Below are positions 8,903-30,926 of a DNA stretch of 64,000 nt, piece by piece; the stretch's first letter is position 1; the number at the start of each line of letters is the position of its first letter. Below the pieces are notes generated by a model. The model did not search any database. It was given only the letters and a program-made list of their open reading frames with translations, and was not told where the DNA came from. The position numbers and the translations under genes are program-made. The stretch spans positions 42,038 through 106,037 of the forward strand of contig JBDRAZ010000103.1 in assembly GCA_043823195.1 (NCBI GenBank), read 5' to 3'. This DNA is from an archaeon (GTDB lineage: Archaea; Nanobdellota; Nanobdellia; Woesearchaeales; JBDRAZ01).

Positions 8903-9994
8903 ATGAAAGCATCCCTTACGGCACTGGAGCTCAGCCACGTAGTGAAGGAACTGCAGTTTCTCATCGGCGCCAGGGTGCAGAAGATATACAACCCTGAGAA
9001 AAAGGTATTCATCTTTGACCTCCACGTTCCCTCCAGGGGCCGCGCAATCCTGAAGGCCAATCTTGCAGGGATGATGCATCTTATGGGCGCGAAAGGCTCA
9101 TACGGCGAGCCTTCGGGCTTTTGCATGTTTCTCAGGAGGCGGCTGGCAAATGCCAGGCTGCGGGCCCTGTCCCAGATTGAGTTTGAGCGCATTGTTGAGT
9201 TCTTGTTTGAGACAAAGGATAATTCGTACATTCTGATCATCGAGCTGTTCGGCGGCGGGAATATGATACTCTGCGACAAGGACAGGATCATCCTGTCGCC
9301 TCTCGAAAACCAAAAATGGAAGGGCAGGACAGTGGCTCCGAAAGAGAAGTACGCACATCCGGGCAAGGGCATCAATTTCCTCACCCTGAAAAAGGAAAAT
9401 CTGGATGAGCTGATTAAGGCCTCGAAGCGGGACTCGGTCGTCAAGCTTCTGGCGATGGATCTTGGGCTTGGGGGGGTGTATGCGGAGGAGGCCTGCCTCA
9501 TGTCAGGTGTTGACAAGGGCAGCCTGCCAAAAGAAACAGGAAAGCTCTATGATGCCCTGAAAAAACTGAGAGGCAAAAAGACCAAGGCATTCGTAGTGGA
9601 GAAGGGCGGGGTTGTGGTCGACATAATTCCATTTGATCTGCAGCACTATGACTCTGAAAAAAAGCCATACAGCAGTTATTCAGAGGCGCTCGACAGCATA
9701 TCTGTCGAGACCGCAGCACAGGCCGCACCCGACAAAAAGCATGAAAAGCTCAAGCGGATAATTGAGCGGCAGGAAAGCACCATCATTGACCTGGAAAAAT
9801 CAGTCAGGGAAAACACCGGGAAGGGCGATCTTCTCTACCTGAAATATGCACAGGTCAGGCAGATTCTTGATGACCTGAAACAGGCCAGAATGAAGTATTC
9901 ATGGAAGGAGATAAAGGAAAAGCTCAGGGGCCATAAGGTGGTAAAAGAGATCAACGAAAAAGAGAGGACGATCGTTCTGGATCTAAATGAATAA
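8903..9994 (+). CDS. NFACT-family protein (archaeal Rqc2/RqcH-like, FbpA N-domain)
   Basis: N-terminal MKASLTALELSHVVKELQFLIGARVQKIY..FIFDLH.. is typical of NFACT-N. The short archaeal-type length (363 aa) has a coiled-coil C-terminus. Confidence 0.5.
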   Translation: MKASLTALELSHVVKELQFLIGARVQKIYNPEKKVFIFDLHVPSRGRAILKANLAGMMHLMGAKGSYGEPSGFCMFLRRRLANARLRALSQIEFERIVEFLFETKDNSYILIIELFGGGNMILCDKDRIILSPLENQKWKGRTVAPKEKYAHPGKGINFLTLKKENLDELIKASKRDSVVKLLAMDLGLGGVYAEEACLMSGVDKGSLPKETGKLYDALKKLRGKKTKAFVVEKGGVVVDIIPFDLQHYDSEKKPYSSYSEALDSISVETAAQAAPDKKHEKLKRIIERQESTIIDLEKSVRENTGKGDLLYLKYAQVRQILDDLKQARMKYSWKEIKEKLRGHKVVKEINEKERTIVLDLNE

Positions 9995-10568
9995 GCTAAC
10001 AATCAGGCCGAATCTCTATTGCGCACTTCTGCTCAAGTTCATTACAATTGTATCCTTTGCAGGGGTCTTATCTGCCTCTGTATTTTTTGTCAGCAGGCTG
10101 GCAGGCTTCAATGTATGGCAGTTCCTTTTTGACACCATTGATACGGTGATCGGGGTCATCCCGCTCATGCCCCCAAGCGCGCTCCATACCTATCTTGAGG
10201 TTGTTATGCATGTTATTGAGGATTATTTTATTGAGGCCGCCGTGCTCATCTGGCTGACTCCGCTCAGGCTGTCCCTAACAAGATGGACATTCTCCCTTGA
10301 TTATTTCCAGGCAGTCTACGGCTTCATCTTGAGGAGCACCAAGACCACACCCTATTCAGAGGTAGTCCACCTGCGCTACAGGAAATACCTCGGATGGTGG
10401 GATTTCGGCAGCCTGGAAGTGGAGCTCTCGTCAAAGACAATCAGGCTCCCTTATGTGGTAGACGTTGAAAAAATTGCAGGTTTGCTGAATCATACGCTGG
10501 AACGCTACAAGGCAATACAGTATGAGCGGCACCTGAAGGGGCGCAGCACCCATAAAGCCTCCGGATAA
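9987..10568 (+). CDS. hypothetical membrane protein
   Basis: Two hydrophobic segments at the N-terminus. It overlaps the NFACT stop by 8 nt. Confidence 0.4.
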   Translation: MNKLTIRPNLYCALLLKFITIVSFAGVLSASVFFVSRLAGFNVWQFLFDTIDTVIGVIPLMPPSALHTYLEVVMHVIEDYFIEAAVLIWLTPLRLSLTRWTFSLDYFQAVYGFILRSTKTTPYSEVVHLRYRKYLGWWDFGSLEVELSSKTIRLPYVVDVEKIAGLLNHTLERYKAIQYERHLKGRSTHKASG

Positions 10569-10834: not shown

Positions 10835-10925
10835 TTTTTTGTTTTTTTTTTGCTTCCATCCGCCTCAAAGCCATGATTAAATATTTATATGTGCTCCGGT
10901 TTATTTGTTCTTGAGGTGATTTATT

Positions 10926-11294
10926 ATGAAGCAAATCGGATATTTAATCCTGGTCACTGTTCTGCTTGGCTGCGCCCGGGAGGCCCAGGAAATCCAGCCG
11001 GGGCCTGACGTGTGCACCATGGAGTATGCGCCGGTCTGCGGCACAGACGGCAACACCTATTCAAATGGTTGCACAGCCGGAGAGGCCGAGATAGCATACG
11101 CCGGGGAGTGCGGAAGCAGTGGCCATTGTGCAGCGCTTGGCGGTCATTGGATTGAGGGTGCAAACGAGTGCGAAGGAGTCTCTGCACTGGATTGCGACGA
11201 AATCGGCGGCACATTCAACGAGTGCGCATCAGCCTGCAGGAATGAGCAGTCAGAAATCTGCACAATGCAGTGCGTCCCTGTATGTGAACTCTGA
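10926..11294 (+). CDS. secreted Cys-rich lipoprotein with Kazal-type domain
   Basis: Lipobox LLGC at residues 13-16. [33 protein letters not shown] matches the Kazal core C..Y.PVCGTDG.TYSN.C. 18 Cys in 122 aa. Confidence 0.6.
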
Positions 11295-11455
11295 AGAAAA
11301 GGGTGACAGCTTTCCGTGTTTCCCGTATTGAAATACAGTACAGCACGGAACGGAAACCCGCTTGACTTCCGTGTTCGAAATGGGAACGGGTAGGACCGGG
11401 TACCTTTGGCCGTCTGAAGGGGTGGAATACGTTTCTTTTTAAAAAGTTAACGGTT

Positions 11456-11605
11456 TTACCTCCTTCTCTTCCTCTCGACCTCAACCTCAATATCCTGTGA
11501 GCCGCATGCCTTGCAGACCCTCACCATTGTCACACGGGATTTCTTGCCGTGCGTATAGTTGCTCCTTGTCTTGATCTTCCTGCCTTTGCAGCTTTTGCAT
11601 ATCAT
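11456..11605 (-). CDS. small basic C4 zinc-ribbon protein (49 aa; ribosomal/transcription-factor-like)
   Basis: My own translation: MICKSCKGRKIKTRSNYTHGKKSRVTMVRVCKACGSQDIEVEVERKRRR. Two CxxC pairs spaced 24 residues apart. A GAGGT ribosome-binding site lies 7 nt upstream. Not in the ORF track because it is under 60 aa. Confidence 0.4.
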   Translation of the reverse strand: MICKSCKGRKIKTRSNYTHGKKSRVTMVRVCKACGSQDIEVEVERKRRR

Positions 11606-11721: not shown

Positions 11722-13606
11722 TTACATATAAATGCTTCGGACCCTGAGCTCCTCAACTACCTTCTGCAAACGCCTGATGCGCTCAGCCATCTCCTGGCTG
11801 GATTTGTGGAAATCATTCATGACAGATATCAGCTCTCCAAGGACGGCCTTGTTGTCCCTGTACCTTGAAAGCTCCTGCCTGAGCTTCCTGGTCTGCGTCA
11901 CATCGCTGGGTGCGCATTTATTGCAGTGGGATGAGAGTTTCCCCTTTATCCCCTCCTCTCTCTTCCTGGCGAAAAACTCCCCCCGCCAGATATCCAGAAG
12001 CGGCCTGTCCCTTATATTATCGCCTTCCTCGGCAAAAAGCCCCGTGAGCCCGCATACACCGGTCCGGCCGTCGTGCTTAATCGCCATGTTGTACCAGGGC
12101 TTCAGGCAGTGGACATCCTCAAGTTTCATTTGCATCCTCCAGTATTGCCTTTCCGAGCTCCCCCGCAGACTTAACAAGCCTGTCCTGCAGTGTCTGGTCT
12201 TTATGGGTGAAGTTTGTCTCAATCCCGTACCTATCTGCGAGCACCCTCGCCTTTTCCACATATCCCGGCAGTTCCCCCCGCTCGGGACCGGTAAGCTTCA
12301 GTCCTGATCCCCCGCTATGATACTCGATTAGGGGCTCAGTGAACACATACTTTACATTCAGCCCGTGCGCAAGCTCAATCATCTCTGGCAGTTCCCTGTA
12401 GTTCAGCCTGTTTGTGACAAAGTTTATGTATATCTCGGGCCGCCCCCCCTTTCTCAGCCTGTTAAACTGCTGAATCGTGTCCAGCGTCTTGTCAAAAGCC
12501 CCCTTAACGCCCCTTAGCATGTCATGGGTTTCAGCCTTTGCACCGTCAATGCTGAAATGCAGCCTGTCCCATCCGATGCTGATGGTATCCTTGATCAGCC
12601 TTTCAGTCCACAGCGTTCCGTTGGTTGTCATCACTCCGTACATCCTGTCATTCTCCTTGACTGATTTCATGACCGGCATGCAGAGTTCAGGCACCATCAT
12701 CGGCTCGCATGCACCCTCAATGTTCCATATAAGCACTCCTGCCCTGTATGACTCCTCGACAATATCAAGCCATTTCCCAAGGGGCATCTCCCTTTTCATG
12801 CTCCTCATATTAAGGTCAGGGCCCGCACCCTGCCGCGTGCATGCCCTGCATTTCAGGTTGCATCTTGTGTGGAGTTCTGCATCAATTTTAAGCGGCGGCG
12901 CCTCAATCCCGTTCTCCCATGACATGAACCTCATAGCCCGCAGGCGCGCAATGATATCCTCCTTCCTGAACCCAATCATAAGCTTCTGTTCCTTCAGGAA
13001 ATATTCAAGCAGCGCGCTTCGTATGTAGTTATCATAGCCGGCCCTGTGCTCAGCATTGCCTGCATTCGAAAAGTCAGCATGGTATTGATCCAGATTCGCA
13101 GTCAGCATCTTTTTTTGTTTCCCGCTAAGCTGGTCGAATCCCCTCTCGCCTTTTATATCCGGCCTCGCCACAGGCCTTTCGGTCTCAACCCACGGCCGCT
13201 TAACGCCGAACTCGCTTTTCCATCTCTCAATCTGTCCGATGACAATCTCAGCCTCCGGTCCATCCCTGAATATCAGCCTGTCCCATTCAATCCTCACCAG
13301 ATTCCTAATTGTGTCCTGCCCCAGGGTCCTGCCGCTAAGATAGCCAACACCGTAGATCCGGTCACCCTTCTTCAGCTCCTTAAGAAATTCAAATCTCCCA
13401 TTTGCCGACTCATCAAGGTCAGCAACCTCGATTATCCTAATCCTGCTTTTCTTGATCCTGGTTATAAGCGGCAAATCGGCTTCCCCGATCTTAAGGGTGC
13501 CGCAGAACGGCTCAAACGGCCCGCCCTCGCACCAGCAAAGCGCCCTTTCCCTCAGCTCGAGAAGAAGCTCACCTAACCTTTCCTTTGGGTCAACGGCGTC
13601 CGGCAT
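11722..13606 (-). pseudogene. radical SAM/SPASM-type enzyme with ~215-aa N-terminal extension, disrupted by a 19-bp insertion near 12121-12139
   Basis: ORF 12119..13606 has CNLKCRACTRQ, GGEP-like and TNGTLW motifs, then stops at ...AILEDANET*. The SPASM half (MKLEDVHCLKPWYN..GRTGVCGL..HCNKC) continues in another frame as ORF 11722..12261. Removing caaatgaaacttgaggatg restores ..AILEDVHCLKPW.., which is collinear with the paralogs. Confidence 0.6.
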
Positions 13607-14753
13607 GTTCCTCCATCTCCTTCTTTATTGCCTGGACCTCAAAAACCCTCCAGACGCAGCAGGTGGCGCACGCCTCAGGCAATCTGCGTGTCAGTATCTG
13701 CCTCCTGTACTGGTCGAAATACTCGCCATGCCAGAGCTCCTTGAGGGTATGGTTCTTGATGTTGACCTTTGTCTCCCAGACATAGTTGTTGAAGCATGCA
13801 GCGATGTTTCCGTTGCCAATAATTGTGACATGGCTCCATGGCTCAAAGCACGGTACTGTCATGAAGTTTTCCAGCGGGTCCTCACTCTCATCCTCGATCA
13901 GCCTCTCGCCCCGCTCTATCCTCTTCCTGATTTCAGTCTTCTCAGCCTCTTCCATAAGGACCTCATGCATGGAGCCAGTCTTCTCAACATACCTGAGATC
14001 CAGAAACCTCTCGAGGTTTGACCATATTTCATGCTTCCTCAGGATCGGAAGGCATTTCCTGATTATGCCCTGGAATTCAGCCATCTGATCGATGTCCATC
14101 TTCAGCCTTTCCCCCTCTTTTGAGAACACGGTAAGCGGCAGTATGTGCAGTTCGTTGCAGCCGACGCTGCGGCCAATTTCGATAATGTTCGGCAGGTCCT
14201 TGTAGTTCCTGTTGGAGACAACGGTGTTGAACCCTATCCTTGGGCGGTCGCTCCCCATGGCCTTCTTCAGCCCTGCAAGCCTCCTGATGTTTGCAAGGAC
14301 CATGTTGTAGCACTTGGCACCCCGCAGGTCATCCTGGATCCTGGCAACAGAGCCGTCGATGCTGAATTTGACCATGGTCCACCTGCTCTTCACCAGGCCA
14401 CGCATCATCTCCTCGGTGAGGAGGCTTCCGTTCGTAACAATATCCCCATCCATGCCGCGCTTCCTGATCCTCATCATGAGCTCAAAGGTAATTTCACGCG
14501 ACAGCGGCTCCCCTCCGCCGACCAGGGCAATCTCCCTGACCCCAAGCTCTGCTGCCTCATCAACAAGCCCCATCAGGCGCTCATCACTCATCTCCTCTGA
14601 ATACCTCTTTTGAAGGTCTCCTGCGGAAACACCCTGCCTCCAGCAGCTGCGGCAGCTGAAATTGCACCTATCGGTAGGAATCAGTTCAATTGTGACCGGA
14701 GGCTGAGGTCTGCCTCTGGCCCATTCAATAAGCCTCTCGGTTTTCAGGTTCAA
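13590..14753 (-). CDS. radical SAM enzyme with SPASM/twitch-type C-terminal Cys domain
   Basis: LIEWARGRP..TDRCNFSCRSCWRQ (CxxxCxxC), VGGGEPL, VTNGSLL, C-terminal VPCFEPW..GNIAAC..CATCC. Family N-terminal motif RL..W..G. TATA ctttataaaaagg about 30 nt upstream on the minus strand. Confidence 0.75.
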   Translation of the reverse strand: MNLKTERLIEWARGRPQPPVTIELIPTDRCNFSCRSCWRQGVSAGDLQKRYSEEMSDERLMGLVDEAAELGVREIALVGGGEPLSREITFELMMRIRKRGMDGDIVTNGSLLTEEMMRGLVKSRWTMVKFSIDGSVARIQDDLRGAKCYNMVLANIRRLAGLKKAMGSDRPRIGFNTVVSNRNYKDLPNIIEIGRSVGCNELHILPLTVFSKEGERLKMDIDQMAEFQGIIRKCLPILRKHEIWSNLERFLDLRYVEKTGSMHEVLMEEAEKTEIRKRIERGERLIEDESEDPLENFMTVPCFEPWSHVTIIGNGNIAACFNNYVWETKVNIKNHTLKELWHGEYFDQYRRQILTRRLPEACATCCVWRVFEVQAIKKEMEEHAGRR

Positions 14754-14795
14754 AGCTACCCCCCGGGACAGGAATATCCGGCCTTTTTATAAAGA

Positions 14796-16574
14796 TTATC
14801 CAAGTTTCTCAAGCTTTCGCCGTGCAGATCTCTCCTCAGGTATCTCAGCAAAATCATATCCCTGTGCTCTTCTGAAGTAGCTGGCTGCCTCCTTGAGGTT
14901 GTCCAGCCTGTATGAGCAGATGGCCAGGAAATACAGTGTATGAAATATAGCGGCCTCGGGCTGCTTTACCTTCAGGCTTTTTTTCAGGCATCTTGCCGCC
15001 TCTTTGTAATTGCCCGATTTTGCATGGCACTTGCCCAGGGAAAACCAGCTCCATTCCAGCTCAGGATCCATTTCAACAGACCTCAGCAGGCAATCCCTGG
15101 CCTTTTCATATTGCCCGAGCTCCATGTGGCACTCACCCAGGTCCCTCAGGGCAAGGGCGCCGGGCGGAATATTCTCAAGCAGCCCGATCGCTTCTTCAAA
15201 TCTCCCCAGCTCCCTCTTGCACCTGGCAATGCTGTATCTTGCCAGGTCCCTTCTTTCACTGCTGTCCTCAAGCCCCTCCAGCTTTTCATAGCACCCGAGG
15301 GCCATGGCGTGCTTTCTGGTCTGCATGTAAATCCTGCCCAGCACAAGCCAGGCATTCCTATTGTCCGGGTTAACCTTAAGCAGATGTTTCATGTAATCGA
15401 TGGCTCTGCCGAACATGCTGTTTTCATAGAAGAATGTGCCGATCTCCCCGAAGCGTTCCATGACCTCCTTTTTTGTGGCCTTTTTTTTCCTGTATTTGTC
15501 ATATAGGCTGAAATGCATGTCCCTTCTGAGCATCTGGGTGCGTATGTACTGCCAGGCGCCGCATCTTGAGCATTCTGCCGGGAGCCTGCCCTCCAGCAGG
15601 TCACTGCGGAACATGGCAAACTCCCTGCTGTTCCATATGTGATTCAGGTCTGTTTTGGCGTTGAGGCCCGGAATCGTGCGCTCGCAGCAGGCACCAACCC
15701 TTCCGTCCGGGTGGATCATCAGGTTATACCAGGGCTCATAGCATGGCACAGACAGAAAACCTCTTTTCTCATATTCAATTTTCTGGTGCGCATGAGAACT
15801 CACAACAGATTTCATCTCATTGGATCTGCGGATCAGGTCAACATCAAGCTTGTCAAGGTCGCTTTCAATGCCATACTCCTCAACTTTGCCGATTGCCTTA
15901 AAGAGGGAGTTTTTCAGCTTGTCGGATTGCTCTTTGGAGAGCCTCAGCTTGTCGAGATGCCCGCTGCCCTTGATTGGATTAACATTGAGAAAATCGCATC
16001 CCATCTGTTTCGCAAGGTCAACCATGCCGGGAAGCTCTTTGTAGTTCCTGTTGCACAGCACCATTGTCAGGACCGCGCTGGGCAGCTTCACCGCGGCCGC
16101 CCTCTTGAATTCGGCCAGCTTCTGCATTGCTGCAGTCGCCCTCCCAAACGAGCCCCTCCCCCTGAGGCAATCATTGGTCTTTTCGCAAGCGCCCTCAATG
16201 CTGAAGCATATGCTCTCCCAGCCCATCAGGACAAGGTTTTTAATCATATCATCTGTGAGGAGGGTCCCGTTTGTTATCACCGTTCCGTTCATCCCGTGGT
16301 CCCTGATCTGCTTCATCAGCATGATTGTTACCGGGCGCATGAAGGGCTCGCCGCCGCCGGACAACAGCCATTCCCGCACCCCCAGCCTATGTGCCTCATC
16401 AACAATCCCTCTGAGCCTGGCATCGCTAAGCTCCGGCCTATCGCGGGACAGCCCCCTGCAGAATACGCAGTTCAGGTTGCACCTGTCAGTTACGTTGAGC
16501 TGTATCCTGAACGGCGGGCTGGTTTTTCCCTCTGACCAGTTCAGCAGCCTTTGCGTTTTTTCATAATCTTTCAT
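14796..16574 (-). CDS. radical SAM/SPASM-type enzyme fused to C-terminal TPR repeats
   Basis: N-terminal LLNWSEGKT..TDRCNLNCVFCRG, SGGGEPF, ITNGTLL, VPCYEPW..GRVGACC..CSRCG. The last ~230 aa are TPR-like helical repeats (LGRIYMQ..ALGCYEKL..). Confidence 0.75.
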   Translation of the reverse strand: MKDYEKTQRLLNWSEGKTSPPFRIQLNVTDRCNLNCVFCRGLSRDRPELSDARLRGIVDEAHRLGVREWLLSGGGEPFMRPVTIMLMKQIRDHGMNGTVITNGTLLTDDMIKNLVLMGWESICFSIEGACEKTNDCLRGRGSFGRATAAMQKLAEFKRAAAVKLPSAVLTMVLCNRNYKELPGMVDLAKQMGCDFLNVNPIKGSGHLDKLRLSKEQSDKLKNSLFKAIGKVEEYGIESDLDKLDVDLIRRSNEMKSVVSSHAHQKIEYEKRGFLSVPCYEPWYNLMIHPDGRVGACCERTIPGLNAKTDLNHIWNSREFAMFRSDLLEGRLPAECSRCGAWQYIRTQMLRRDMHFSLYDKYRKKKATKKEVMERFGEIGTFFYENSMFGRAIDYMKHLLKVNPDNRNAWLVLGRIYMQTRKHAMALGCYEKLEGLEDSSERRDLARYSIARCKRELGRFEEAIGLLENIPPGALALRDLGECHMELGQYEKARDCLLRSVEMDPELEWSWFSLGKCHAKSGNYKEAARCLKKSLKVKQPEAAIFHTLYFLAICSYRLDNLKEAASYFRRAQGYDFAEIPEERSARRKLEKLG

Positions 16575-16581: not shown

Positions 16582-18729
16582 CTACTGCACGCATTCCCTG
16601 CATGTAAGGTTATCGCCGGCCCTTCCCCCCAGGCTTACGCTGTCGATATATATGACCCTCTCTTCCTGCGCATTAAGATCATTGTCAATCCTGAACCTGT
16701 AGGACTTTACCATGTCAAGGTCCCGTCTCCCGTTCCCCTGAAAAGGGAATGATTCGTCCTGCGGCTCAAGCTCATCGAACAGGACGGTAATAAGTGTCCA
16801 GTTCCTGCCAAGCAGGACATCTGCGTTCCTGTATTCCCACCAGTCATCATCCCTGTCAACAATGTACAGGTGCAGCATCCCGCCCATCCCGTCCCCCCTC
16901 ACCGCAAAACTGATGCTCTCATAATCACTCCAGTCCTGACCAATATTCCGGTATGCCTTTATGTGCTTGACAACCCCCTGATCCTCGCCGAAGCTGACCG
17001 AGAGCCTGAGTGAGTTCCTGCCTTCAAATGCATGGCTGTCCGCAGACGCGGCAATAAAAACGGATGGCTCGTGGTCCGGGTCGCCGCTGCCAAATCCCTC
17101 AAAAACCATGTTGCTGAGGTCGCCGTCCTCAAAGTCATCTATGGTCTGATCTGCATCTCCCGCTTCACCTTCACTGTCAATCACCTTGTAGATGAAGAAT
17201 ATCTCCTCGCCCTTTGAGTCCCTTATCTTTTCAAGAATGGCCAGCTCCTTTCCCGCCTCCCGGGCCGCCTGTTCAAGCCCCTCCAGCCTGCCCCTGAATA
17301 TCGTGTGCCTCTTGGAATAAAACACATAGGCATTGGCCGGATCATTGACCCTGTCCTTAATGTCGGCGATATATTCCGCCGGCGGGCCCTCCTCCGCAGG
17401 ATTCTCGCTGACATAAATGTCAATTGGCGCGACCGCACCCCTCGTATTGATCAGTACCGGGTTAGATATTCCCCAATCCATGATCAGGGGTTCAGCTATC
17501 CCGTTTTCCATGAGGTATTCAGATAACCTGTACAGCGCATCTGAATAGCGGGCGGCATCGCCGGGATGTATTATGTGGGTCTCGTAGCGCAGAGTGTAGA
17601 TGCTGCCGGCAATCACCAGGAAAATTACCCAGAGCCACAGGTAAATCTTATTATGCCCAAAAACCCGGACAACAGAAACAGCAATGATCTGCGCCATGAG
17701 CGGAAGCAGTATCAGCTTATGGTGTGCGCCGAAATTTGTGACTGTTACTGTCAGGGTCAACAAGATCACCGCGAAATTGACAAGCACAAAGGCCAGGTTT
17801 CTTCTTATGCTGCGAATGCCCGCCAGGATGATAATGACTGATGCCAGAAGCAACAGGTTGTAAATCACGGGTGATACTGAGAGCAGTTGCGTGATGTTTG
17901 TGGCAAGATTGCCTGATACATCCAGGTTGTTGGTGCCGAATCTGGTGCCAGGAAAATTTGAAAAAAAGAACTTAAAGGTCCCAAGGGTGATTATGTTGTA
18001 AATCAGGAGCGGCATGCACCCCGCTGCAAAGCTGCAGGCTGCAAGGGCTGCCTCTTTGCGCTTCAGTGGCAGGACCGGCCGCACGTTCTTCCACCTGAGG
18101 AGAACCGGCGCAGACGCCGCCAGGGCAAACAGGTAGAAGAGGAACAGCAGAAGGGTGTATGTCCCGAACCCGAGCATAAAGAATCCCGCGTAAAGATACC
18201 GGCGTTTCTTTGTATCCGCATATCTCAGGAAGCAGAGCAGGGCAGCATAATAAAGCAGCATAAGGAAATGGATAATCAGTGTGCTCCGGTTCATGTAGAG
18301 GAAATTGATATGGAATGCAAGTGCGGCTGTGGCCACATATGCAACTTTCCTTGAAAAGAATCCCTTAGTGAACAGGTAATATGCCACGAGCATGAGCATC
18401 TGCAGCATAATCAGGGGAATTCTTATCGAGTATACGCTGATGTCAAAGACCCCGAAGATCCCCATATAGAGGTAGGCAAGTGTCCATCCCGCATACGGGG
18501 TAGCCATAACCGGAAGCTCCACCCCTGACACGTTCACGCTGTACTCCACCATTCTTTCCTTAACCTCGTCACTCAGCCCGCCGGACAGCATCTGCATGGC
18601 AACTATCGGCTCAATCACGGCATCATAGGAGAGCGCAGGCATGCCAATATCACGGATATTAAGGAAGAAGAACAATGCCAGCACCGCAGCAAGAAAGGCA
18701 ATCTCGCTTCTCCTCATCTGTCTTTTCAT
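16582..18729 (-). CDS. polytopic membrane protein (GT-C-type glycosyltransferase-like) with C-terminal CBM11/CIA30-like beta-sandwich domain
   Basis: About 13 predicted TM helices in the first 450 aa. The C-terminal ~200 aa are paralogous to 24126..24905 and 30936..31688 (shared ..DWSxYxxxxFAVxGDGxGGxLxLxxVDxDxDWWxYxxxxxLxxxxWTxxTxxFxxLxxxxxxFPxxGxG..YRxRID). Confidence 0.55.
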   Translation of the reverse strand: MKRQMRRSEIAFLAAVLALFFFLNIRDIGMPALSYDAVIEPIVAMQMLSGGLSDEVKERMVEYSVNVSGVELPVMATPYAGWTLAYLYMGIFGVFDISVYSIRIPLIMLQMLMLVAYYLFTKGFFSRKVAYVATAALAFHINFLYMNRSTLIIHFLMLLYYAALLCFLRYADTKKRRYLYAGFFMLGFGTYTLLLFLFYLFALAASAPVLLRWKNVRPVLPLKRKEAALAACSFAAGCMPLLIYNIITLGTFKFFFSNFPGTRFGTNNLDVSGNLATNITQLLSVSPVIYNLLLLASVIIILAGIRSIRRNLAFVLVNFAVILLTLTVTVTNFGAHHKLILLPLMAQIIAVSVVRVFGHNKIYLWLWVIFLVIAGSIYTLRYETHIIHPGDAARYSDALYRLSEYLMENGIAEPLIMDWGISNPVLINTRGAVAPIDIYVSENPAEEGPPAEYIADIKDRVNDPANAYVFYSKRHTIFRGRLEGLEQAAREAGKELAILEKIRDSKGEEIFFIYKVIDSEGEAGDADQTIDDFEDGDLSNMVFEGFGSGDPDHEPSVFIAASADSHAFEGRNSLRLSVSFGEDQGVVKHIKAYRNIGQDWSDYESISFAVRGDGMGGMLHLYIVDRDDDWWEYRNADVLLGRNWTLITVLFDELEPQDESFPFQGNGRRDLDMVKSYRFRIDNDLNAQEERVIYIDSVSLGGRAGDNLTCRECVQ

Positions 18730-19976
18730 TTGCTATGGTACCTTCTTACATTCACGAGCGCAGTTGCCCGGGAGATGCCGTAATCCGTGGATATCTCGCC
18801 CTGGTTGCAGCATGACATCACCTGATAATCAATGCGGGCGGGATCGCAGATAACAGCAAAGGCCAGGATCATGCAGCCGGCGCCGCCCGCCTTTGTGAAT
18901 GTCAGGGGGCCCGAATAGGCCAGCCTGAAAAGGCTAGGCAGCAGGAGCAGGCTTCGCCACCGCATTGCCGTGATGAGCCTCATCCAGCTTATGATGCGGG
19001 CATTGCCCGGGATAGCGGCCAATCTCCTGAGGTCAACAAAATCGGCAAGTGTTCTTACCCTTTTTCCCCTGAACAGGGGGTAGTACAGGTTGTAAAAGCA
19101 TTTCTTCCTGCCAAAGATATGCGAGAGCAGGTACAGGAGCGGCTGGCTGCGGTATACCCTGCCTGTTGAAACCCTCCCCCCGGTTGACCTGCAGAGTTCA
19201 TCCATAATATCCTCAACGCACATCAGGCCTCCGGGCATCTTCATGTGCGCCACCGGCCTGAACACCACTGCTTTAACGAACCTGTTATTCAGGGCATAGC
19301 GCAGTATCCCTGGCGTCTCGCCAATATTATTCTCATCCACCGTGGCTTCGATTACCGTTGGCATGCGGCATCCCCTCAGGTTCCGGAGCGCCAGGAGCTT
19401 GCTGTCCAGGAGGTCAGCTCCGCGACGCCCGATATAATAGTCCCTGTCAAAACCGTCAAACTGAAGATGAACCTCAGAGACCCCTGATTTCTTAAGCATC
19501 TCAACATAAGGCTTCTGAGCCAGCCTGATGCCGTTTGTATGCAATAGGGCAGCATTGCCTGATTCTCTGACTATCCTGATTATGTCGGCCAGGTCTTCCC
19601 TGATTGTCGGCTCCCCGCCGAACAGGCCGATCTTCTTTCCCCTGAATCCCGCCAGCAGCTGCCTGATCTCCCTGAGCGACGGCTCACGGTATTTGTGGTA
19701 GTTGGCCCTCACAAAGCATTCCCTGCAGCTGATGTTGCAATCAAGCGTCAGCATCAGCTGATACAAATCAGGCCCCGGACCCTTGCCGGGATATGAGAAA
19801 TAGGAATCATGCATTGCCCGGTAATCCCCCGGATGCGAAGAAAGCATCACACTGAAATCCCCGTGGTCGCTGCAGCTCTTGACCATCTTCACTGTCCCGG
19901 ACGTTTCAACCACATCTGCACTGATCTTCCTGAGGCATACCGGGCACAATGAGTGCGTCTTTCTCAGCACGTTCAT
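18726..19976 (-). CDS. zinc-ribbon-radical SAM fusion enzyme (paralog of 22728..24047)
   Basis: N-terminal CPVCLRK..(20)..CSDHG ribbon, then LTLDCNISCRECFV (CxxxCxxC), GLFGGEPT, LHTNGIRL. C-terminal Cys cluster (..CDP..SCCNQG). Confidence 0.6.
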   Translation of the reverse strand: MNVLRKTHSLCPVCLRKISADVVETSGTVKMVKSCSDHGDFSVMLSSHPGDYRAMHDSYFSYPGKGPGPDLYQLMLTLDCNISCRECFVRANYHKYREPSLREIRQLLAGFRGKKIGLFGGEPTIREDLADIIRIVRESGNAALLHTNGIRLAQKPYVEMLKKSGVSEVHLQFDGFDRDYYIGRRGADLLDSKLLALRNLRGCRMPTVIEATVDENNIGETPGILRYALNNRFVKAVVFRPVAHMKMPGGLMCVEDIMDELCRSTGGRVSTGRVYRSQPLLYLLSHIFGRKKCFYNLYYPLFRGKRVRTLADFVDLRRLAAIPGNARIISWMRLITAMRWRSLLLLPSLFRLAYSGPLTFTKAGGAGCMILAFAVICDPARIDYQVMSCCNQGEISTDYGISRATALVNVRRYHSK

Positions 19977-20013: not shown

Positions 20014-21448
20014 ATGGCGGATGTCATTCTTGTGCAGCCCAGAAGCGAGTTTCTTGATCGTCTGCAGGTGCACCCAAACATCCCTTTGAACCTTCTGGCG
20101 CTCGCATCCCGTCTGGACAGCTACAATGTCCGGATTATTGACCAGCGCACGGAACCCGGCTGGAGGGGCCAGCTCAAAAGGCACCTCCGGACTGACCCGG
20201 TTGCAGTAGGCATATCCTCAATAACCGGGAAACAGATCTCAAGCGCGCTGGATATTTCACAATTTGTCAAAAAGCACTCAGCGGCCGCAGTTGTCTGGGG
20301 CGGCCCGCACGCAACCCTTGAGCCCAGGCAGACCGTTGAAAACCAGTACATCGACATTGTGGCTGAAGGTGACGCAGAGGAGTCGTTCCCATCTGTTGTT
20401 GACCATCTTGAGGCGGGCTCCGGCCTGGACAGGGTCAAGGGCATCTGGCACAAGAGCAAAAGGATCACCTGCAATGGCCCGTCAAAGCCCTTTGACCTCA
20501 ACATGCAAAGGGACCTGCCTTTTGGGCTTCTTGACATGAGGAGGTACCTGGGTAAGGAAAAAAGGCTCATGATCGAGACCTCCCGCGGGTGCCCATCTGC
20601 CTGCACATACTGTTCTGCAAACAGGCACCCCTACAACGCCATGTCCCCTGAAAAAGCCGTTGACCTGATCCAGGCAGTATCTGGCTCGTATCATCTGGAG
20701 CACATCGCGCTTGCTGATTCAAATTTTTTTTTTTGACCACCGGCGCGCCCTGAGGATTATCCGGGGAATGATCAGGGAAAAGGTTGCCGCCAGGCTGTGG
20801 GTCCCAGGAACCCACATCATTCCGTTTTCGCGCTATGCAGGCCCTGAGCTCCGGCTTGTGCAGAAAGGCTGCAGCTATCTTGGGGTTGGAGCGGAATCAG
20901 GTTCCGACGCAGTCCTGAAAGAAATCGGAAAGAACATTACTGTCAGGCAGGTCACTGACTTCAACAGGAAGATAAAGGAATACGGCATCACGGTAAACTA
21001 CAATTTCATGAGCGGCTTCAGGGGCGAGACAGTGGATGACCTGGCATCAACAATCAGGCTTATGCTGGACCTGATCAGGCAGAACCCAAACGCAATCGGC
21101 GGACCGGTCAACCCTGTTCAGATCCTCCCTAGGACCCAGGTCTACAAACAGGCTGTACATGATGGCCTGCCGCCTCCGCGCAGGCTTGAAGACTGGATCC
21201 AGTTCAACAGCACCCTGGGAAGCAAGCTTGGGCATCTTCCGTGGGTTGACGCAGAACGGGCCGGCCTCCTCAGGGGCATCTATATATCTTCGCTGTTTCT
21301 GAACGACCAGTCGTCATACCTTCACACAAAGGCACTCAAGCCCGTGCATAAGCTGTTCAGGCGCATCTCAGAATACCGGCTGCGCAACCTGGCCTTTGGG
21401 CTTATGCCTGAAAGAGCAGTATACAACGCTCTTGAGGGGTTGCTCTAA
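20014..21448 (+). pseudogene. B12-binding (class B) radical SAM enzyme, frameshifted in a T11 homopolymer (20724-20734)
   Basis: ORF 20014..20736 has the B12-domain N-terminus and SRGCPSACTYCS, and ends ..ADSNFFF*. ORF 20711..21448 continues the TIM-barrel in the +1 frame. Joined they read ..ADSNFFFDHRRALRII.. One extra or missing T in the run restores the frame. Confidence 0.6.
20724..20734 (+). repeat. T11 homopolymer at the frameshift point
   Basis: Counted directly: aaa + 11 t + gacc. Confidence 0.8.
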
Positions 21449-22728
21449 AAGTGCTCGCCCCGCGCATGCCTCAGCCAGTAGTAGGCCCCATACACAGGCA
21501 GGAATCCCATAACCGGATACCTGAGGGGGCCTGGGTTATAGAACTGCATCTTCTCAAGCAGGTTTGTTCCCGGCCGCACTATCCCTTCCCTCACTGCCTG
21601 CTCATATAATTCTGTATGGGGGTAGATCCTGATGAGGCCGAAGAGCACCCTTCTGCCAGGCGACGATATCTTTGCCGCAAGCCGCAGCGTTTCAGATAAT
21701 GTGGAGACGGTCTCGCCGGGCGGATTAAGGAAGAACATGAATCCTGTATTGAGCTCTCTTGTTTTTTTTGCGCAGTCAATTATCTGGCCCACAGTAATTT
21801 CCTTCTTCAGCATGTCCAGCGTCCTCTGTGAGCCGGCATCAGGCGAAAATTCAAGGTAGCTGCAGCCCGATCTCTTCATCAGGCTGATGCTCTCCCTGTC
21901 TGCGTGGTCCGCCCTCATATAGGTGGCCCACGAAACATCCAGGTTCCTTGCGGCAATTCCCTTGCAGATGCCCCTCAGCTGCCGCTTATTGTCGCCGAAT
22001 ATGCAGTCGGCAAACCATGCCTTCCTGATTCCGTGGCCGGCCAGCTCCTCAACCTCATCAGCCACAGCCGCGGGGTCCCTGTACCTGACCTCGGCATTCT
22101 GGATGTTTGAGTATGTGCAGTATGTGCACTTGTAGCGGCACCCCCTCCTGGTCTGCACGCCATGGTCGGTATACCTGCTGAGCCGGATTCCGGGAAAATC
22201 CCTTTTTACCGGGCCGTCAATATCATGGATTGCGCTCGCCGGCCTGGTGAAGACAACCCTCCTGTTTTTCCTGTAGCATATCCCGCGGACTGATCCGGGA
22301 TCCCGCAGGTTTTCCAGCAGCTCGCAGACTGACCTCTCACCCTCTCCGATAATTCCGAAATCGATCCCCGTCTTTTCCATGATCTCCCTGCTGAACAATG
22401 TGAACCCTGATCCGCCCGCGATAAGGATGGCATTGCTGTTCTCTTTTATCAGCTTTACAGCCTTATAAAACCAGAAGATGTTCCTGTTCCTGATAAAGAG
22501 GTTCTCTGTCTGCGAGTCCGCATTCCTCAAGGATACCCCTATGACATCAAAGCCATCTCCTGCCTTCCTCCGCAGGCCCCCAAAGGGGTCTTCGGCAACA
22601 TTCATGTCAAATATCTCAACAGTGTGGCCTGCATTCTCAAGGGCTGTGCCTATATAGCAGAGGTTAAGCGGGAAAACCTTCCTTTTCCTGATATCCTGGC
22701 CAGGGGATTGCACAAGGAGGCAGTGCAC
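21445..22728 (-). CDS. B12-binding (class B) radical SAM enzyme (GTG start overlapping upstream TAG as TAGTG)
   Basis: Motifs VHCLLVQSPGQD..(B12 domain)..RRGCRYKCTYCTYS..FGDNK. The ORF track extends it to 22815, but a GTG at 22726-22728 overlaps the stop of the upstream gene. Confidence 0.6.
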   Translation of the reverse strand: MHCLLVQSPGQDIRKRKVFPLNLCYIGTALENAGHTVEIFDMNVAEDPFGGLRRKAGDGFDVIGVSLRNADSQTENLFIRNRNIFWFYKAVKLIKENSNAILIAGGSGFTLFSREIMEKTGIDFGIIGEGERSVCELLENLRDPGSVRGICYRKNRRVVFTRPASAIHDIDGPVKRDFPGIRLSRYTDHGVQTRRGCRYKCTYCTYSNIQNAEVRYRDPAAVADEVEELAGHGIRKAWFADCIFGDNKRQLRGICKGIAARNLDVSWATYMRADHADRESISLMKRSGCSYLEFSPDAGSQRTLDMLKKEITVGQIIDCAKKTRELNTGFMFFLNPPGETVSTLSETLRLAAKISSPGRRVLFGLIRIYPHTELYEQAVREGIVRPGTNLLEKMQFYNPGPLRYPVMGFLPVYGAYYWLRHARGEHF

Positions 22729-24047
22729 TATCTCATCCTCTCCCTCTCTATGTTCCCGTATGCCAGGCTGCTGGTTCTTCCGGAGCTCGAAATCTCGCCG
22801 CCGTCGCAGTTGCATGCGCTCTGGGTATCGAGGTTATGCATGTCGCATATGCTGCCGAATTCGATTATCAGGTATCTTCTCGTGAGACCAGACTGGCCAA
22901 AGACAAAGTGCTTTCCAAGGCGTTTCATCGCCAGTGTCTGGATCGCGCGGTATATCAGTCCGAGTGAGCCCCGGTTCAGATTCGTGAGGAGTCTGAACAG
23001 GACAATCCGGTTTTTTGATCTGATAAAATCCATCAGTGCATCCTGCATGTCATCAAGCCTCATGATCCCGCTTATCGGATCATAGCCCCCCTTGTTTCTC
23101 CGGACTACGTAGTAGTGGTTGTAGAAGCACCTGGGCTGGCCGAGCATATAAAAAAAGGCATAAATGAGCCTCTGGAAATTCAGGACATCTGCCTTTGTGA
23201 TCCTCCCATCGGTGCCCTTCTCAATGATGCCTATCTGCTCATCTATTGTCAACGAAACATCCCTGCTTAGTCCGGCCCTCCCGAGGTGGCTGTAGCTCTT
23301 GTAGAGGATTGCCCTTACAAACCCATGCTGCGCAGCATAATCCAGTATGCCTGCCATATTATTTTCATTAATTCCCCTTCCCACCGCAACCTGCAGTATG
23401 GTCGGCATGCTGAGCATCTCAAGATTCCTAAGGGCCCTGAGCTTTACGTCAAGCAGCTTTTTTCCCCTAAAAATCGAGCAGGGCTTATCAGAGAATCCGT
23501 CGAACTGCAGGTGCACCTCAACAAGCCCGGCACGCTTCAGCGATTTGAGGTATCCATGATCCGCTAGCCTTATCCCGTTAGTATGCAGGGCCGGGATGTT
23601 CCCGCTCTTCAGCACAGCCCTGATTACCTCAGCCAGGTCATCCCTCAGGGTTGGCTCGCCCCCGAACAAACCAATCTTGCAGTTCCGGAGGTCTTTCAGC
23701 TGCCCGGTAATCTGCTGGACAGATGGTTCACTGTATTCCCTGTTTGCGCTGACATGGCATATCGGGCAGTCCAGGTTGCACCGAAGGGTCAGGAACAGGT
23801 TATAGTACTCCTGGCTCATGTTCCATAGCAGGCCCTTTGAGCAGTCATTAAGCGAGAAATAGGCCTCAGAGGCAGCCCTGTAATAGCTGCTGTCATTTGA
23901 GATGACCGAGGATATCATCCCATGCTTTTTGCACCGGCGCTCCAGGAAAACCCTCGGCTTCCTCTCAACAACAGAAGCATTCAGCTCAGACACGCATATG
24001 GGGCAATAGGCCTTAGTCTTCCTTAATATCATGCATGCAGTAATCAA
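22728..24047 (-). CDS. zinc-ribbon-radical SAM fusion enzyme (paralog of 18726..19976)
   Basis: CPICVSEL..(20)..CKKHG, LTLRCNLDCPICHV, GLFGGEPT, LHTNGIRL. Collinear with 18726..19976 including HLQFDGF. Confidence 0.6.
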   Translation of the reverse strand: MITACMILRKTKAYCPICVSELNASVVERKPRVFLERRCKKHGMISSVISNDSSYYRAASEAYFSLNDCSKGLLWNMSQEYYNLFLTLRCNLDCPICHVSANREYSEPSVQQITGQLKDLRNCKIGLFGGEPTLRDDLAEVIRAVLKSGNIPALHTNGIRLADHGYLKSLKRAGLVEVHLQFDGFSDKPCSIFRGKKLLDVKLRALRNLEMLSMPTILQVAVGRGINENNMAGILDYAAQHGFVRAILYKSYSHLGRAGLSRDVSLTIDEQIGIIEKGTDGRITKADVLNFQRLIYAFFYMLGQPRCFYNHYYVVRRNKGGYDPISGIMRLDDMQDALMDFIRSKNRIVLFRLLTNLNRGSLGLIYRAIQTLAMKRLGKHFVFGQSGLTRRYLIIEFGSICDMHNLDTQSACNCDGGEISSSGRTSSLAYGNIERERMR

Positions 24048-24125: not shown

Positions 24126-24905
24126 TCAGCCAAGGGCGATTCTGTCAATATACAAAACGCGGTCTTCGCCAAGATTATCCGGAGTCGGCTGATCGATGCG
24201 TATTCTGTAATTTGTCACCCGGTCAAGATTCTTCACGCCATTGCCCCTGAACGGAAAATTTTCCCCCGGCGCTTCCAGGCTTTCAAACGGTATTGTAATT
24301 GATGTCCAGTTTCTCATATGCAGCACATCCCCGGAGGCATAATGCCACCAGTCTCCGTCTTCATCAACGACCCAGAATTGCAGAACCCCGCCTGACCCGT
24401 CCGGCTTCAATGACAGTTGGACACTCCCGTACCTGCTCCAGTTTTGACTTATTCTCTTGTATATCTTTATGTGCTTCCCGGCCTCATATTCGCCGAAATT
24501 GAACTCGATCATCATCGAGCTGTTGCCATCAAAGGAGACGCCTGAGGCAATGCTGGCATTCATTCTGATGGTGGGCTCATTGATGTCGTCTTTTCTTCCG
24601 AACCTTTCAAAAACAAAACCATCAATGCCCCGCTCAAAATCATCAAGTACTGTCAGGTTGCCCTCGGCCCTGCCAAAGGCGTCATCAAACAGCCCATCCC
24701 GCAAGCCTGCATCCTGTCTGCCTTCATTGTTATGCACCCAGAAGAAAAAGGCCACGATGAGAAATGCACTGATCCCCATGGCCAGGAAAAATGTCTTTCT
24801 TTCCCAGTCATCGGCTCTGCTTTTCCCGGTCAAGTCGTGCTCAGGTGATTTCATCGATCCTGCATAAGTGATGCTCTTATTTATTTCTGCCTGTCTGCCG
24901 GACAA
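24126..24905 (-). CDS. membrane-anchored CBM11/CIA30-like beta-sandwich domain protein
   Basis: One N-terminal TM helix (FFLAMGISAFLIVAFFFWV), then a domain paralogous to the C-terminus of 16582..18729 and to 30936..31688. Confidence 0.5.
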   Translation of the reverse strand: MSGRQAEINKSITYAGSMKSPEHDLTGKSRADDWERKTFFLAMGISAFLIVAFFFWVHNNEGRQDAGLRDGLFDDAFGRAEGNLTVLDDFERGIDGFVFERFGRKDDINEPTIRMNASIASGVSFDGNSSMMIEFNFGEYEAGKHIKIYKRISQNWSRYGSVQLSLKPDGSGGVLQFWVVDEDGDWWHYASGDVLHMRNWTSITIPFESLEAPGENFPFRGNGVKNLDRVTNYRIRIDQPTPDNLGEDRVLYIDRIALG

Positions 24906-29402: not shown

Positions 29403-30926
29403 TTGGGGGCACCTCTAACGATGGGCTACAGGACTGCCATGGCAGCATCTCTTAAACGGGACAGGTATTTTTGCCTGCTTATTGGAATTCTTCTGTTGTC
29501 TCTTTTTTTCAGGGTCTATGGCCTGTCTGCCGGCCCGCTGAGGAATGATGAGGCATATGATACTGTTTTCAGGGGAATGGATGCCGGTGTCGCAATCCAG
29601 CTTTACAGGTTGCTTGATTGGGGTCCGCCGGTTTTTTACCGCCTCATTATCAGGTTATCATCTTCTTTTCTGCCTTACAATGAATGGGGTTTAAGGTATC
29701 CTTCAGTGATATTTGGGGCAATAAGCGTATTATTGATTTATTATCTGGGTGCGCATCTATTTAGCAAAAAGACCGGCCTTATTGCAGCCCTCTTAATGGG
29801 CATAAATCCGTTTCATATTTACTATTCGCAGCTGGCGAGGGGCTATTCATTGTTCATAATGCTGGTCATGCTTTCCAGCCTGGCATTTTTTCAGTTCATA
29901 AAAAGCAGGGGCTATAGGTCCCTTCTGGCTTACACTGCGGTCACCCTGCTCGCATTGTACACCCATGAGACGCTTGTATTTCTTGTGGTTGTCCAAAACG
30001 TGCTGTTCTTTCTTCAGTACCGGGGTTCCGGAAGGGCCTTATTAAAATGGCTGATCCCCAATTTTTTATTTGTGGCGGCATTTTTCGGGATATACAATTT
30101 TTTTTTTTTCCATCGGGTAAAGGTACGTTACACTGAGACCCTGTGGTGGATTCCGCGGCCGGAACCCGGCGCCCTGTTCGGGACTCTCAAATCCTTTCTT
30201 TACGGTCCGTACTATCACCTCACAAACCATTGGTTTCAGCTATTGCTTGGTATGTTTGCTTTTTTTGTTCTATTCCTGCTGATTCATTCACTGGCCAGTC
30301 CCGGGAGGGAAGCATGGAAGCTGTCTTATCTGGTCCTGCTTCTTATTGTGCCCGTTGCATCCGTCTATATCTGGTCTGTTCTGGGAACCCCCTATTCCCT
30401 TTATAACAATGACTATCTGGTTGTGTGCCTTCCTCCTCTCATCTTATTGCTGTCTTATGCAATCTCCGGCCTAAAAAGGGGACACATTCCGGTGTTTGTG
30501 ATTCTGTTTCTTGCCGTTGTGGGTCCCCTGATTGTGTTGGGCGGCTATTCAACGGTTCAAAACAGGGATGTGAGAGGCGCAGCCGGCTACATACAATCAA
30601 TAAATCCCGATGCTTTGATTCTGGTCTACCCGTCATGGTACATGCAGCTCGCAAATTTCTATCTTGGTCAGCGGTCAAGAATATCGTCAACAAAATCCGG
30701 TGAGGAATTCAGGCAGGCAATAGGCAATGAGACTGAATTCTGGATCTTGTTTGGCTCTGCAGAATTGCCCGGAGACTATGAGAGCATCTATGGGATAACC
30801 GATAATGAAACAGCAAAAGGCTATGATGTCACTGTATCAAGGGCGAGGGGGATTGATATCTTTCGCTTTGTCCGCAGGGGGTGTGGGCATCATCCCTGCA
30901 GATCCACAGATAATGGTGATGAATAA
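29403..30926 (+). CDS. GT-C-type glycosyltransferase, PMT/ArnT (GT39/GT83)-like polytopic membrane protein
   Basis: RVYGLSAGPLRNDEAYD..RYPSVIFGAISVLLIYYLGAHLFSKKTGLIAALLMGINPFHIYYSQLARGY matches the conserved first-loop DE motif plus TM2-4 of the PMT_2/ArnT family. About 11 TM helices. Confidence 0.6.
   Translation: MGAPLTMGYRTAMAASLKRDRYFCLLIGILLLSLFFRVYGLSAGPLRNDEAYDTVFRGMDAGVAIQLYRLLDWGPPVFYRLIIRLSSSFLPYNEWGLRYPSVIFGAISVLLIYYLGAHLFSKKTGLIAALLMGINPFHIYYSQLARGYSLFIMLVMLSSLAFFQFIKSRGYRSLLAYTAVTLLALYTHETLVFLVVVQNVLFFLQYRGSGRALLKWLIPNFLFVAAFFGIYNFFFFHRVKVRYTETLWWIPRPEPGALFGTLKSFLYGPYYHLTNHWFQLLLGMFAFFVLFLLIHSLASPGREAWKLSYLVLLLIVPVASVYIWSVLGTPYSLYNNDYLVVCLPPLILLLSYAISGLKRGHIPVFVILFLAVVGPLIVLGGYSTVQNRDVRGAAGYIQSINPDALILVYPSWYMQLANFYLGQRSRISSTKSGEEFRQAIGNETEFWILFGSAELPGDYESIYGITDNETAKGYDVTVSRARGIDIFRFVRRGCGHHPCRSTDNGDE
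30098..30109 (+). repeat. T12 homopolymer inside the GT-C coding region (encodes N-F-F-F-F), currently in frame
   Basis: Counted directly. Same AAT(T)n codon context as the frameshifted T11 tract at 20724. Confidence 0.8.

Follow-up and report, generated by a model that had tools for sequence, protein, structure and literature searches.

Two overlapping reading frames of one enzyme gene

The window, by which we mean the whole 64-kb stretch of archaeal DNA that was analysed, carries on its minus strand two adjacent reading frames, ORF A and ORF B, which overlap by 11 nt and which NCBI annotates as two separate genes. The features of the two reading frames are as follows, where P0039 is the candidate orthologue described in the next section.

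12119 to 13606, minus strand: ORF A, 495 aa, an N-terminal extension followed by a radical-SAM core, ending AILEDANET*; in NCBI MFH1850415.1, 'radical SAM protein'
12980 to 13606, minus strand: N-terminal extension, ORF A residues 1-209
12371 to 12868, minus strand: Radical_SAM domain (PF04055), ORF A residues 247-412
12839 to 12862, minus strand: intact CX3CX2C cluster motif, CNLKCRAC, ORF A residues 249-256
11722 to 12129, minus strand: ORF B, 135 aa, in frame +1 relative to ORF A and starting MKLEDVHCLKPWYN; in NCBI MFH1850414.1, 'SPASM domain-containing protein'
11914 to 12108, minus strand: SPASM/twitch domain (PF13186), ORF B residues 8-72
11725 to 11913, minus strand: helical C-terminal tail, of which residues 73-112 align with the tail of P0039, including its MNDF motif

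The PF04055 match in ORF A scores 46.9 bits against a gathering score of 29.5 and spans profile positions 5-165 of 166. The columns of the CX3CX2C motif, which by the family criterion binds the SAM-cleaving [4Fe-4S] cluster, are invariant in two family alignments. An earlier reading of this DNA, made from the sequence only, had described the downstream frame as SPASM-like, and this description holds, with a PF13186 match in ORF B of 31.6 bits (cut-off 21.5) over profile positions 1-66 of 67. A full SPASM domain with two auxiliary clusters is recognized by seven or eight cysteines in the pattern CX9-15GX4C ... CX2CX5CX3C ... C; ORF B and the rest of the family conserve only four (C8, C26, C69 and C72 of ORF B), as would be expected of a twitch-like domain with one cluster. 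ORF B matches the NCBIfam twitch model N_Twi_rSAM only partially, at 36.8 bits and far below its cut-off of 170. None of the named radical-SAM equivalogs in NCBIfam (PqqE, tungsten-cofactor maturase, AhbD, NirJ, MftC and others) reached its cut-off, the best score being 77 bits against the 380 required by W_rSAM_matur and the others likewise lying far under theirs; many SPASM/twitch radical-SAM models of NCBIfam matched, all of them beneath threshold.

All residues that are invariant in the family are kept in both halves: C249, C253, C256 and the GxxEP and TNG motifs in ORF A, and the first SPASM cysteine with its PW, the second cysteine and the CxxC in ORF B. Codon-usage log-odds are 0.51 bits per codon for the radical-SAM core and 0.48 for ORF B, while the genes of the window average 0.46 +/- 0.09, and the preferred coding frame switches at about 12130. 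A single frame break is the only disabling change at the locus, and neither half carries other damage. The break is a real feature of the assembled sequence, and ORF A and ORF B are one broken or split enzyme gene that has been annotated as two CDSs. One break in a gene with intact invariant residues and codon usage is compatible with a lesion of very recent origin, with an artefact and with a functional split.

Fused relatives and the N-terminal extension

In order to place the two reading frames within their family, we examined relatives in the window, on related contigs and in protein searches. The window holds six clear paralogues and one distant one, and related contigs carry tandem arrays of up to eight consecutive paralogues, some of them in similar glycan contexts; the family is thus as expanded as the sequence-only reading had proposed. 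Neighboring genes in the window encode PMT_2 and GT2/GT4 glycosyltransferases, sugar-nucleotide enzymes, a flippase and a carbamoyltransferase, as well as B12-radical-SAM proteins and Tes-like zinc-ribbon radical-SAM proteins. Relatives that carry a name belong to Candidatus Aenigmarchaeota.

A profile search returned 59 family hits, which are 357-449 aa long and cover at least 85% of the core, save three: the locus described here, a 268-aa protein cut by the end of its 1.3-kb contig (P0065), and P0021, a double-length fusion of 827 aa. The split occurs in none of the 58 other family hits and in no paralogue of the window, all of which are fused apart from the truncated P0065, and in the best homologues (44-46% identity), as in the in-window paralogues, one polypeptide carries both domains. 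Neither the repaired protein nor ORF B, used as queries in protein searches, had a homologue above 46% identity, and scans of genome and metagenome contigs found no relative. Exact-protein look-ups for ORF A, ORF B and the upstream neighbor found no record, and the exact proteins occur only in one NCBI MAG record.

The best candidate orthologue is P0039 (423 aa), which is fused and syntenic: it is encoded just downstream of a paralogue of the type found at 13590-14753, with only a 77-aa ORF between. It is 46% identical to the core and 41% identical to ORF B, and the MNDF motif of the tail is common to both. An AlphaFold2 model of P0039 has a mean pLDDT of 93, and its least confident interior stretch is block 291-300 (pLDDT 79). 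The frame break maps onto this stretch, which is a linker in the modelled structure, so the break is predicted to lie at the domain boundary, in the interdomain linker. The two halves of P0021 best match the genes at 14796-16574 (37%) and 13590-14753 (57%), whose order in the window is the same; P0021 is a natural in-frame fusion of orthologues of these adjacent genes. We take the locus to be a formerly fused radical-SAM and SPASM/twitch gene within a tandem paralogue family of an archaeal surface-glycan cluster.

The N-terminal extension had been called unique, and with respect to homologous proteins it is: the N-termini of homologues align to M210 of ORF A, the extension is absent from all of them, and an exhaustive HMMER search of 1.84 billion representatives returned only the protein itself. 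An AlphaFold2 single-sequence model of the extension alone was uninformative (pLDDT 35). The extension is probably still translated, because it is open for 209 codons and has gene-like codon usage (0.53 bits per codon, typical of genes in the window). What the earlier description had missed is that the extension contains a degenerate version of the radical-SAM core found in this family itself, a link that only pairwise, HMM and hhalign comparisons brought out:

13169 to 13399, minus strand: degenerate radical-SAM core copy, ORF A residues 70-146, inside the extension

This relic corresponds to the TTNG...WDRI.FSIDG...P segment, although those motifs have decayed, and its sequence GRFEFLKELKKGDRIYGVGYLSGRTLGQDTIRNLVRIEWDRLIFRDGPEAE corresponds to ...MKSVKENDRMYGVMTTNGTLWTERLIKDTISIGWDRLHFSIDGAKAE of the family core. 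It matches the protein's own core by BLASTP at E=1e-7 and family HMMs at E=9e-8 to 6e-6; an hhalign comparison gives a probability of 95.7% (E=8.6e-9) and reaches the conserved Pro after a 16-residue deletion. Collinear matches extend to about 30 family members, and the extension contains no CX3CX2C motif. The relic is as distant from its own core as from other members of the family, and therefore the duplication of the core is old. By analogy with P0021, which shows such a route, the relic could have originated by fusion of neighboring paralogues followed by decay of the upstream copy. We also considered the 77-aa ORF upstream of P0039 as an origin for the extension; the two show no similarity.

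Nature of the frame break

The junction between the two reading frames contains the following features.

12136 to 12140, minus strand: GGAGG, Shine-Dalgarno-like, 6 nt upstream of the ORF B ATG (12127-12129)
12133 to 12139, minus strand: GAGGATG, first copy, just 5' of the 19-nt segment
12114 to 12132, minus strand: 19-nt segment, CAAATGAAACTTGAGGATG, earlier called an insertion; it holds the ORF A stop and the ORF B start
12121 to 12131, minus strand: AAATGAAACTT, likeliest site of the frame lesion, with the best HMM scores for single-base deletions
12114 to 12120, minus strand: GAGGATG, second copy, at the 3' end of the 19-nt segment

On the minus strand the junction reads ...CTG GAG GAT G[CAAATGAAACTTGAGGATG]TC CAC TGC CTG AAG... 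(in longer form, ...GGCAATACTGGAGGATG CAAATGAAACTTGAGGATG TCCACTGCCTGAAG...), and the stop of ORF A is the TGA at 12119-12121, inside the 19-nt segment. This arrangement had been read as a genuine pseudogene, inactivated by an insertion of 19 bp with a 7-bp direct repeat at its flanks, rather than as a homopolymer error. The sequence itself had been described correctly, including the GAGGATG copies, the ...AILEDANET* end and the collinear frame that is restored without stops when the 19 nt are deleted; each of the eight equivalent positions of this deletion yields a stop-free ORF of 621 codons reading ...AILEDVHCLKPWYN....

The length of the linker that each repair would produce bears on what was lost or gained. 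Counted from the conserved Asn (xNF) to the first SPASM cysteine, the linker has a minimum of 33, a median of 49 and a maximum of 72 residues in 63 family members, and 39-52 residues in the 14 closest. Deletion of the 19 nt leaves 29 residues, below all 63 measured members; a single-base repair within AATGAAACTT leaves 35, which is still below the 39-52 of the closest relatives. Linker length varies widely in the family, and a linker six residues shorter would be unusual but not impossible. We then scored about 28 repairs on four family HMMs, each built without the query:

All homologues: deletion of the 19 nt 414.7 bits; best single-base or 2-nt repairs 425-427
Close homologues: deletion of the 19 nt 457.2 bits; best single-base or 2-nt repairs 467-468
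Close homologues, enlarged set: deletion of the 19 nt 458.4 bits; best single-base or 2-nt repairs 470.9
Family, enlarged set: deletion of the 19 nt 373.2 bits; best single-base or 2-nt repairs 383-385

The deletion ranks lowest of all repairs in all four HMMs, by 10-12.5 bits, although a gap of 10 bits is largely gap penalty. Scores are highest when one base is deleted within TGAAACTT, at +4 to +10 of the 19-mer, and loss of one A from either of the AAA runs at 12129-12131 and 12124-12126 repairs the frame equally well. In a multiple alignment the end of ORF A (LGKAILEDANET, AILEDANET) aligns with MkhILLDDvKeIe of the homologues and the start of ORF B (MKLEDVHC) with their dPFLsAPC or pFLsAPC; the 19 nt therefore sit at positions that are filled by linker residues in relatives. 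Since deleting them makes the linker shorter than in any measured relative and gives the worst HMM score, and since no source for them was found in the window, they are probably native linker-coding sequence, and the lesion is likely a small indel.

The reading that we tentatively prefer, with a probability of roughly 0.45, is a real small-indel mutation that left either a young pseudogene or an accidentally split gene. A gain of one base, or a loss of 2 (mod 3) bases, in or near AATGAAACTT would have moved the frame by +1 within the acidic and variable linker between the barrel and the auxiliary-cluster domain. The 19 nt would then be native linker, and the GAGGATG repeat, which encodes Leu-Glu-Asp twice, would be incidental. 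Since neither half is damaged in any other way, we take the mutation as real and very recent. The frame break, the intact domains, the linker lengths and the HMM ranking are observations, whereas how large the indel is, where it lies, its biological origin and its functional outcome are what we infer. The locus would make a 495-aa core protein without the auxiliary [4Fe-4S] domain, and the GGAGG-N6-ATG exposed by the shift may accidentally allow separate translation of the 135-aa twitch ORF. The outcome would be a young pseudogene or an accidental two-piece gene. In KW_cyclase, a characterised SPASM enzyme, the SPASM domain's cysteines are crucial to activity (PMC5491770), and by this analogy the core of ORF A would probably be crippled on its own. 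It speaks against a small indel that the ancestral junction is a reconstruction, the closest homologue having 46% identity. It speaks against an accident that the GGAGG-N6-ATG arrangement precedes only 0.9% of internal sense-strand ATGs, which hints at more.

An error of assembly or consensus is unlikely, but deserves serious consideration. Under this explanation the organism has an intact fused gene, and the MAG carries a spurious base in a TTT of the plus strand, at 12124-12126 or 12129-12131. One base less in either run gives a family-typical protein with top HMM scores, neither half is otherwise damaged, and only one record documents the source MAG. The window contains one more frameshift, of a similar kind: at 20.7 kb, a T11 run divides a B12-binding radical-SAM gene into 20014-20736 and 20711-21448, and shortening this run to T10 restores a B12-radical-SAM ORF of 477 aa, so that the lesion there is an extra T on the plus strand and both frameshifts are repairable by removing one T from a plus-strand T run. 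However, runs of three bases are rarely miscalled, and other long intragenic runs are in frame (T12 at 30098-30109, T9 at 35015-35023). With only two frameshifts among about 50 genes in 64 kb, the assembly is not generally indel-ridden. Overlaps at 33130-34197/34098-34631, 57386-58672/58596-59645 and 21445-22815/22728-24047 were considered as further frameshifts and are instead explained by over-long mechanical starts.

Selected gene fission, in which the gene has become two subunits and a translationally coupled 135-aa twitch subunit docks in trans on a core that carries a degenerate N-terminal pseudo-radical-SAM domain, is distinctly improbable, even though several features of the junction would suit it. 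The stop and start overlap within 11 nt and a GGAGG lies at the optimal spacing of 6 nt, which makes this a candidate, from sequence, for translational coupling, with a ribosome-binding site close enough to serve the overlapping start; the arrangement precedes only 10 of 1069 internal sense-strand ATGs. The split falls exactly at the interdomain linker and leaves all four family-invariant cysteines of the auxiliary domain in ORF B. NCBI annotates two genes, and the family shows the opposite event in P0021, where orthologues of two adjacent genes are fused. On the other hand, the split is absent from the other 58 family hits and from the in-window paralogues, the former being fused proteins of 357-449 aa (827 aa in P0021), so the split is not a conserved one. 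Codons for Leu-Glu-Asp and Asn-Glu yield the GGAGG and the ATG incidentally, so that both would predate the shift, and GGAGG-type leaders are uncommon in the window. The literature searched offered nothing relevant on SPASM genes with a frameshift, or on SPASM domains made as polypeptides of their own. A functional split would show that a twitch domain can act in trans.

The 19-bp insertion originally proposed, before which the linker would have read ...AILEDVHCLKPWYN..., is quite unlikely. Its deletion does restore the frame without stops, and 'IL' before the first cysteine would resemble the 'FL' of homologues. Exact direct repeats of at least 7 bp with a period of 8-30 number 127 in 64 kb, or about 2 per kb, and 4.7% of window positions fall within their spans; with a period of 1 mod 3 in 26 of the 127, only 0.07 such repeats are expected over the 179 nt that are open in both frames, so that the GAGGATG repeat exceeds chance only weakly. 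A 7-bp direct repeat is a substrate for deletion and not a sign of insertion, and novel sequence is inserted far less often than single bases are gained or lost, which counts against this explanation, as do the short repaired linker and the low HMM scores given above. The 19-mer occurs once in the 64-kb window, to which the search for other copies was confined: there is no second copy with up to 3 mismatches, and none of its 12 non-repeated nucleotides with up to 1 mismatch, which leaves those 12 nt without a source in the window. Neither is the segment a tandem duplicate of the preceding 19 nt, as only 12 of 19 positions match and 7 of these are the repeat itself; a longer, diverged tandem duplication fares no better, with 5 of 12 positions matching outside the 7-bp repeat.

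Programmed +1 ribosomal frameshifting that would join ORF A and ORF B into one protein can be set aside: the in-frame UGA, the upstream GGAGG and the required +1 shift superficially recall the prfB site, but prfB-type sites have a CUU-U codon and the right Shine-Dalgarno spacing, whereas this one has neither (no slippery codon at ACU-UGA, as ACU-U cannot re-pair as CUU, and a GGAGG 11 nt from the shift codon instead of about 3 nt) and lacks a stimulatory structure, the local RNA being less stable than shuffled controls (z = +1.38).

The preference for a genuine pseudogene over a homopolymer error, as the sequence-only reading had it, is thus not sustained, given that a repair by one A works equally well, that the other frameshift of the window is an extra T in a T11 run, and that a Shine-Dalgarno-like GGAGG precedes ORF B. 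Annotation of the locus should not list a 19-bp insertion among its mutations. The suggestion of paralog turnover survives in part: the gene is indeed broken and its family in flux, but a 19-bp insertion does not stand as the cause. The frameshift, the fused relic of an older copy and the natural fusion of two copies in a relative add to the evidence that birth and death act at the level of domains in this large, uncharacterised twitch-type radical SAM family of archaeal glycan clusters.

Comparison with known enzymes and split genes

The locus belongs to a known enzyme class, as an ordinary member that is frameshifted or split, and only the relic core domain and the Shine-Dalgarno-coupled twitch ORF are mildly unusual. 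Like the SPASM/twitch enzymes SuiB, SkfB, PqqE, CteB and anSME, and the sugar-acting DesII and BlsE, it encodes a barrel with CX3CX2C followed by a C-terminal, Cys-rich auxiliary-cluster domain, and it shares with them the combination of PF04055 and PF13186. The modelled P0039 matches SuiB, SkfB and PqqE in Foldseek at E=6e-13 to 2e-10, and by sequence, too, the best PDB matches are PqqE and SkfB. Solved enzymes nevertheless show only 11-20% identity (15-20% for SuiB, SkfB and PqqE, the nearest folds). Four cysteines are conserved here as against seven or eight in full SPASM enzymes, the genomic setting is a glycan cluster with glycosyltransferases and not a RiPP cassette, and the auxiliary domain is encoded by a separate ORF.

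The arrangement also resembles that of frameshifted genes annotated as two CDSs, in that adjacent ORFs on the same strand and in different frames jointly cover one profile while the relatives are single proteins. It differs from most frameshift fragments in that the break lies at a domain boundary and exposes a Shine-Dalgarno sequence with an ATG; for this reason the pieces could still work. Among genes that are separate in one lineage and joined in another, CofG and CofH are two polypeptides whose counterpart elsewhere is the single FbiC. CofG and CofH are each complete radical-SAM enzymes and their split is conserved across lineages, whereas the cut here separates the core of a single enzyme from its auxiliary domain, in one genome only. 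P0021 shares its family and its gene neighborhood with the locus, and it differs in being a fusion of two complete enzymes and not a fission of one.

Origin of the N-terminal extension of ORF A

We compared the 'orphan' N-terminal extension of ORF A (the 495-aa reading frame that carries this extension ahead of a radical-SAM core) with the radical-SAM core of the family using hhalign, and obtained a probability of 95.7%. The extension contains a degenerate copy of the family core with an internal deletion, located at 13169-13399 (-), and the CX3CX2C cluster motif of radical-SAM proteins is absent from it. This copy is a pseudo-domain relic that was fused in frame.

Tandem paralogues and fusions in the family

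Up to eight radical-SAM/SPASM paralogues of the family are encoded in a row, as tandem arrays, on related metagenome contigs:

L001, 355-9313
L003
L004, 2985-11093

The L003 array adjoins PMT_2, carbamoyltransferase, GT2 and B12-radical-SAM genes. Given these arrays, and the similar neighbors of the one on L003, the multi-paralogue cluster is a conserved theme. P0021, an 827-aa family protein from a Logan contig, is a natural fusion of two complete paralogues joined in frame; the best matches of its halves in the window are 14796-16574 (37%) and 13590-14753 (57%), and the order of the halves is that of the adjacent window genes (13590-16574, -). The paralogue at 14796-16574 (-) carries a tetratricopeptide-repeat region of about 230 aa C-terminal to its SPASM domain, and its NCBI label is 'tetratricopeptide repeat protein' only. 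Next to a distant radical-SAM/SPASM paralogue, on its downstream side, lies the gene of a 355-aa protein (together 32013-34197, +) for which no Pfam match was found. By eye, a candidate P-loop-like motif, GGGKTT, was spotted in this 355-aa protein.

Homopolymer runs and flanking genes

A second frameshift affects a B12-binding radical-SAM gene at 20014-21448 (+), which is broken into two ORFs of 240 and 245 aa at a T11 run; one T fewer would give a single ORF of 477 aa. The long runs are:

20724-20734 (+), T11, break point of the B12-binding radical-SAM gene
30098-30109, T12, inside a PMT_2 gene, in frame
35015-35023, T9, inside a radical-SAM gene, in frame
10842-10851, T10, intergenic

The split at T11 may reflect a sequencing error, a genuine slip or a tract prone to slippage. 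The T12 and T9 runs leave their genes in frame, therefore not every long homopolymer is a break point in the assembly. The NFACT_N protein within 8903-10568 (+) is only 363 aa long and aligns to positions 4-362 of the 456-position profile, and its gene may be truncated; the gene downstream in the same interval, which overlaps it by 8 nt, encodes a membrane protein that matches bPH_2 weakly.

The interval 10926-11605 encodes:

11456-11605 (-), 49-aa zinc-ribbon-like ORF (weak Pfam match) that has two CxxC pairs, directly downstream of ORF B (the SPASM/twitch frame) on the same strand
11301-11417 (-), 5S rRNA gene standing by itself downstream of the cluster (64 bits in Rfam)
10926-11294 (+), 122-aa Cys-rich protein that has a Kazal-type protease-inhibitor domain and whose N-terminus (LLGC) resembles that of a lipoprotein

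Besides the 5S rRNA gene, no tRNA or further rRNA was found in the 64-kb window. A mechanical ORF at 11215-11490 overlaps this gene and was rejected as spurious. A Kazal-type domain is unusual in an archaeon.

Fused and separate domains in the glycan cluster

A single 715-aa protein at 16582-18729 (-) combines a PMT_2 glycosyltransferase with CBM_11, and in another cassette these are encoded by two neighboring genes (29403-30926 and 30936-31688, +), separated by TAA plus 9 nt in the same frame. CBM_11 occurs a third time at 24126-24905, there as a protein of its own. The cluster also encloses two radical-SAM genes, 18726-19976 (-) and 22728-24047 (-), whose products bear an HMPTM-type N-terminal zinc ribbon. 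The NCBIfam scan of this pair covered the 18726-19976 product, whose matches to Tes (tetraether lipid synthase) and TrsS fall below threshold.
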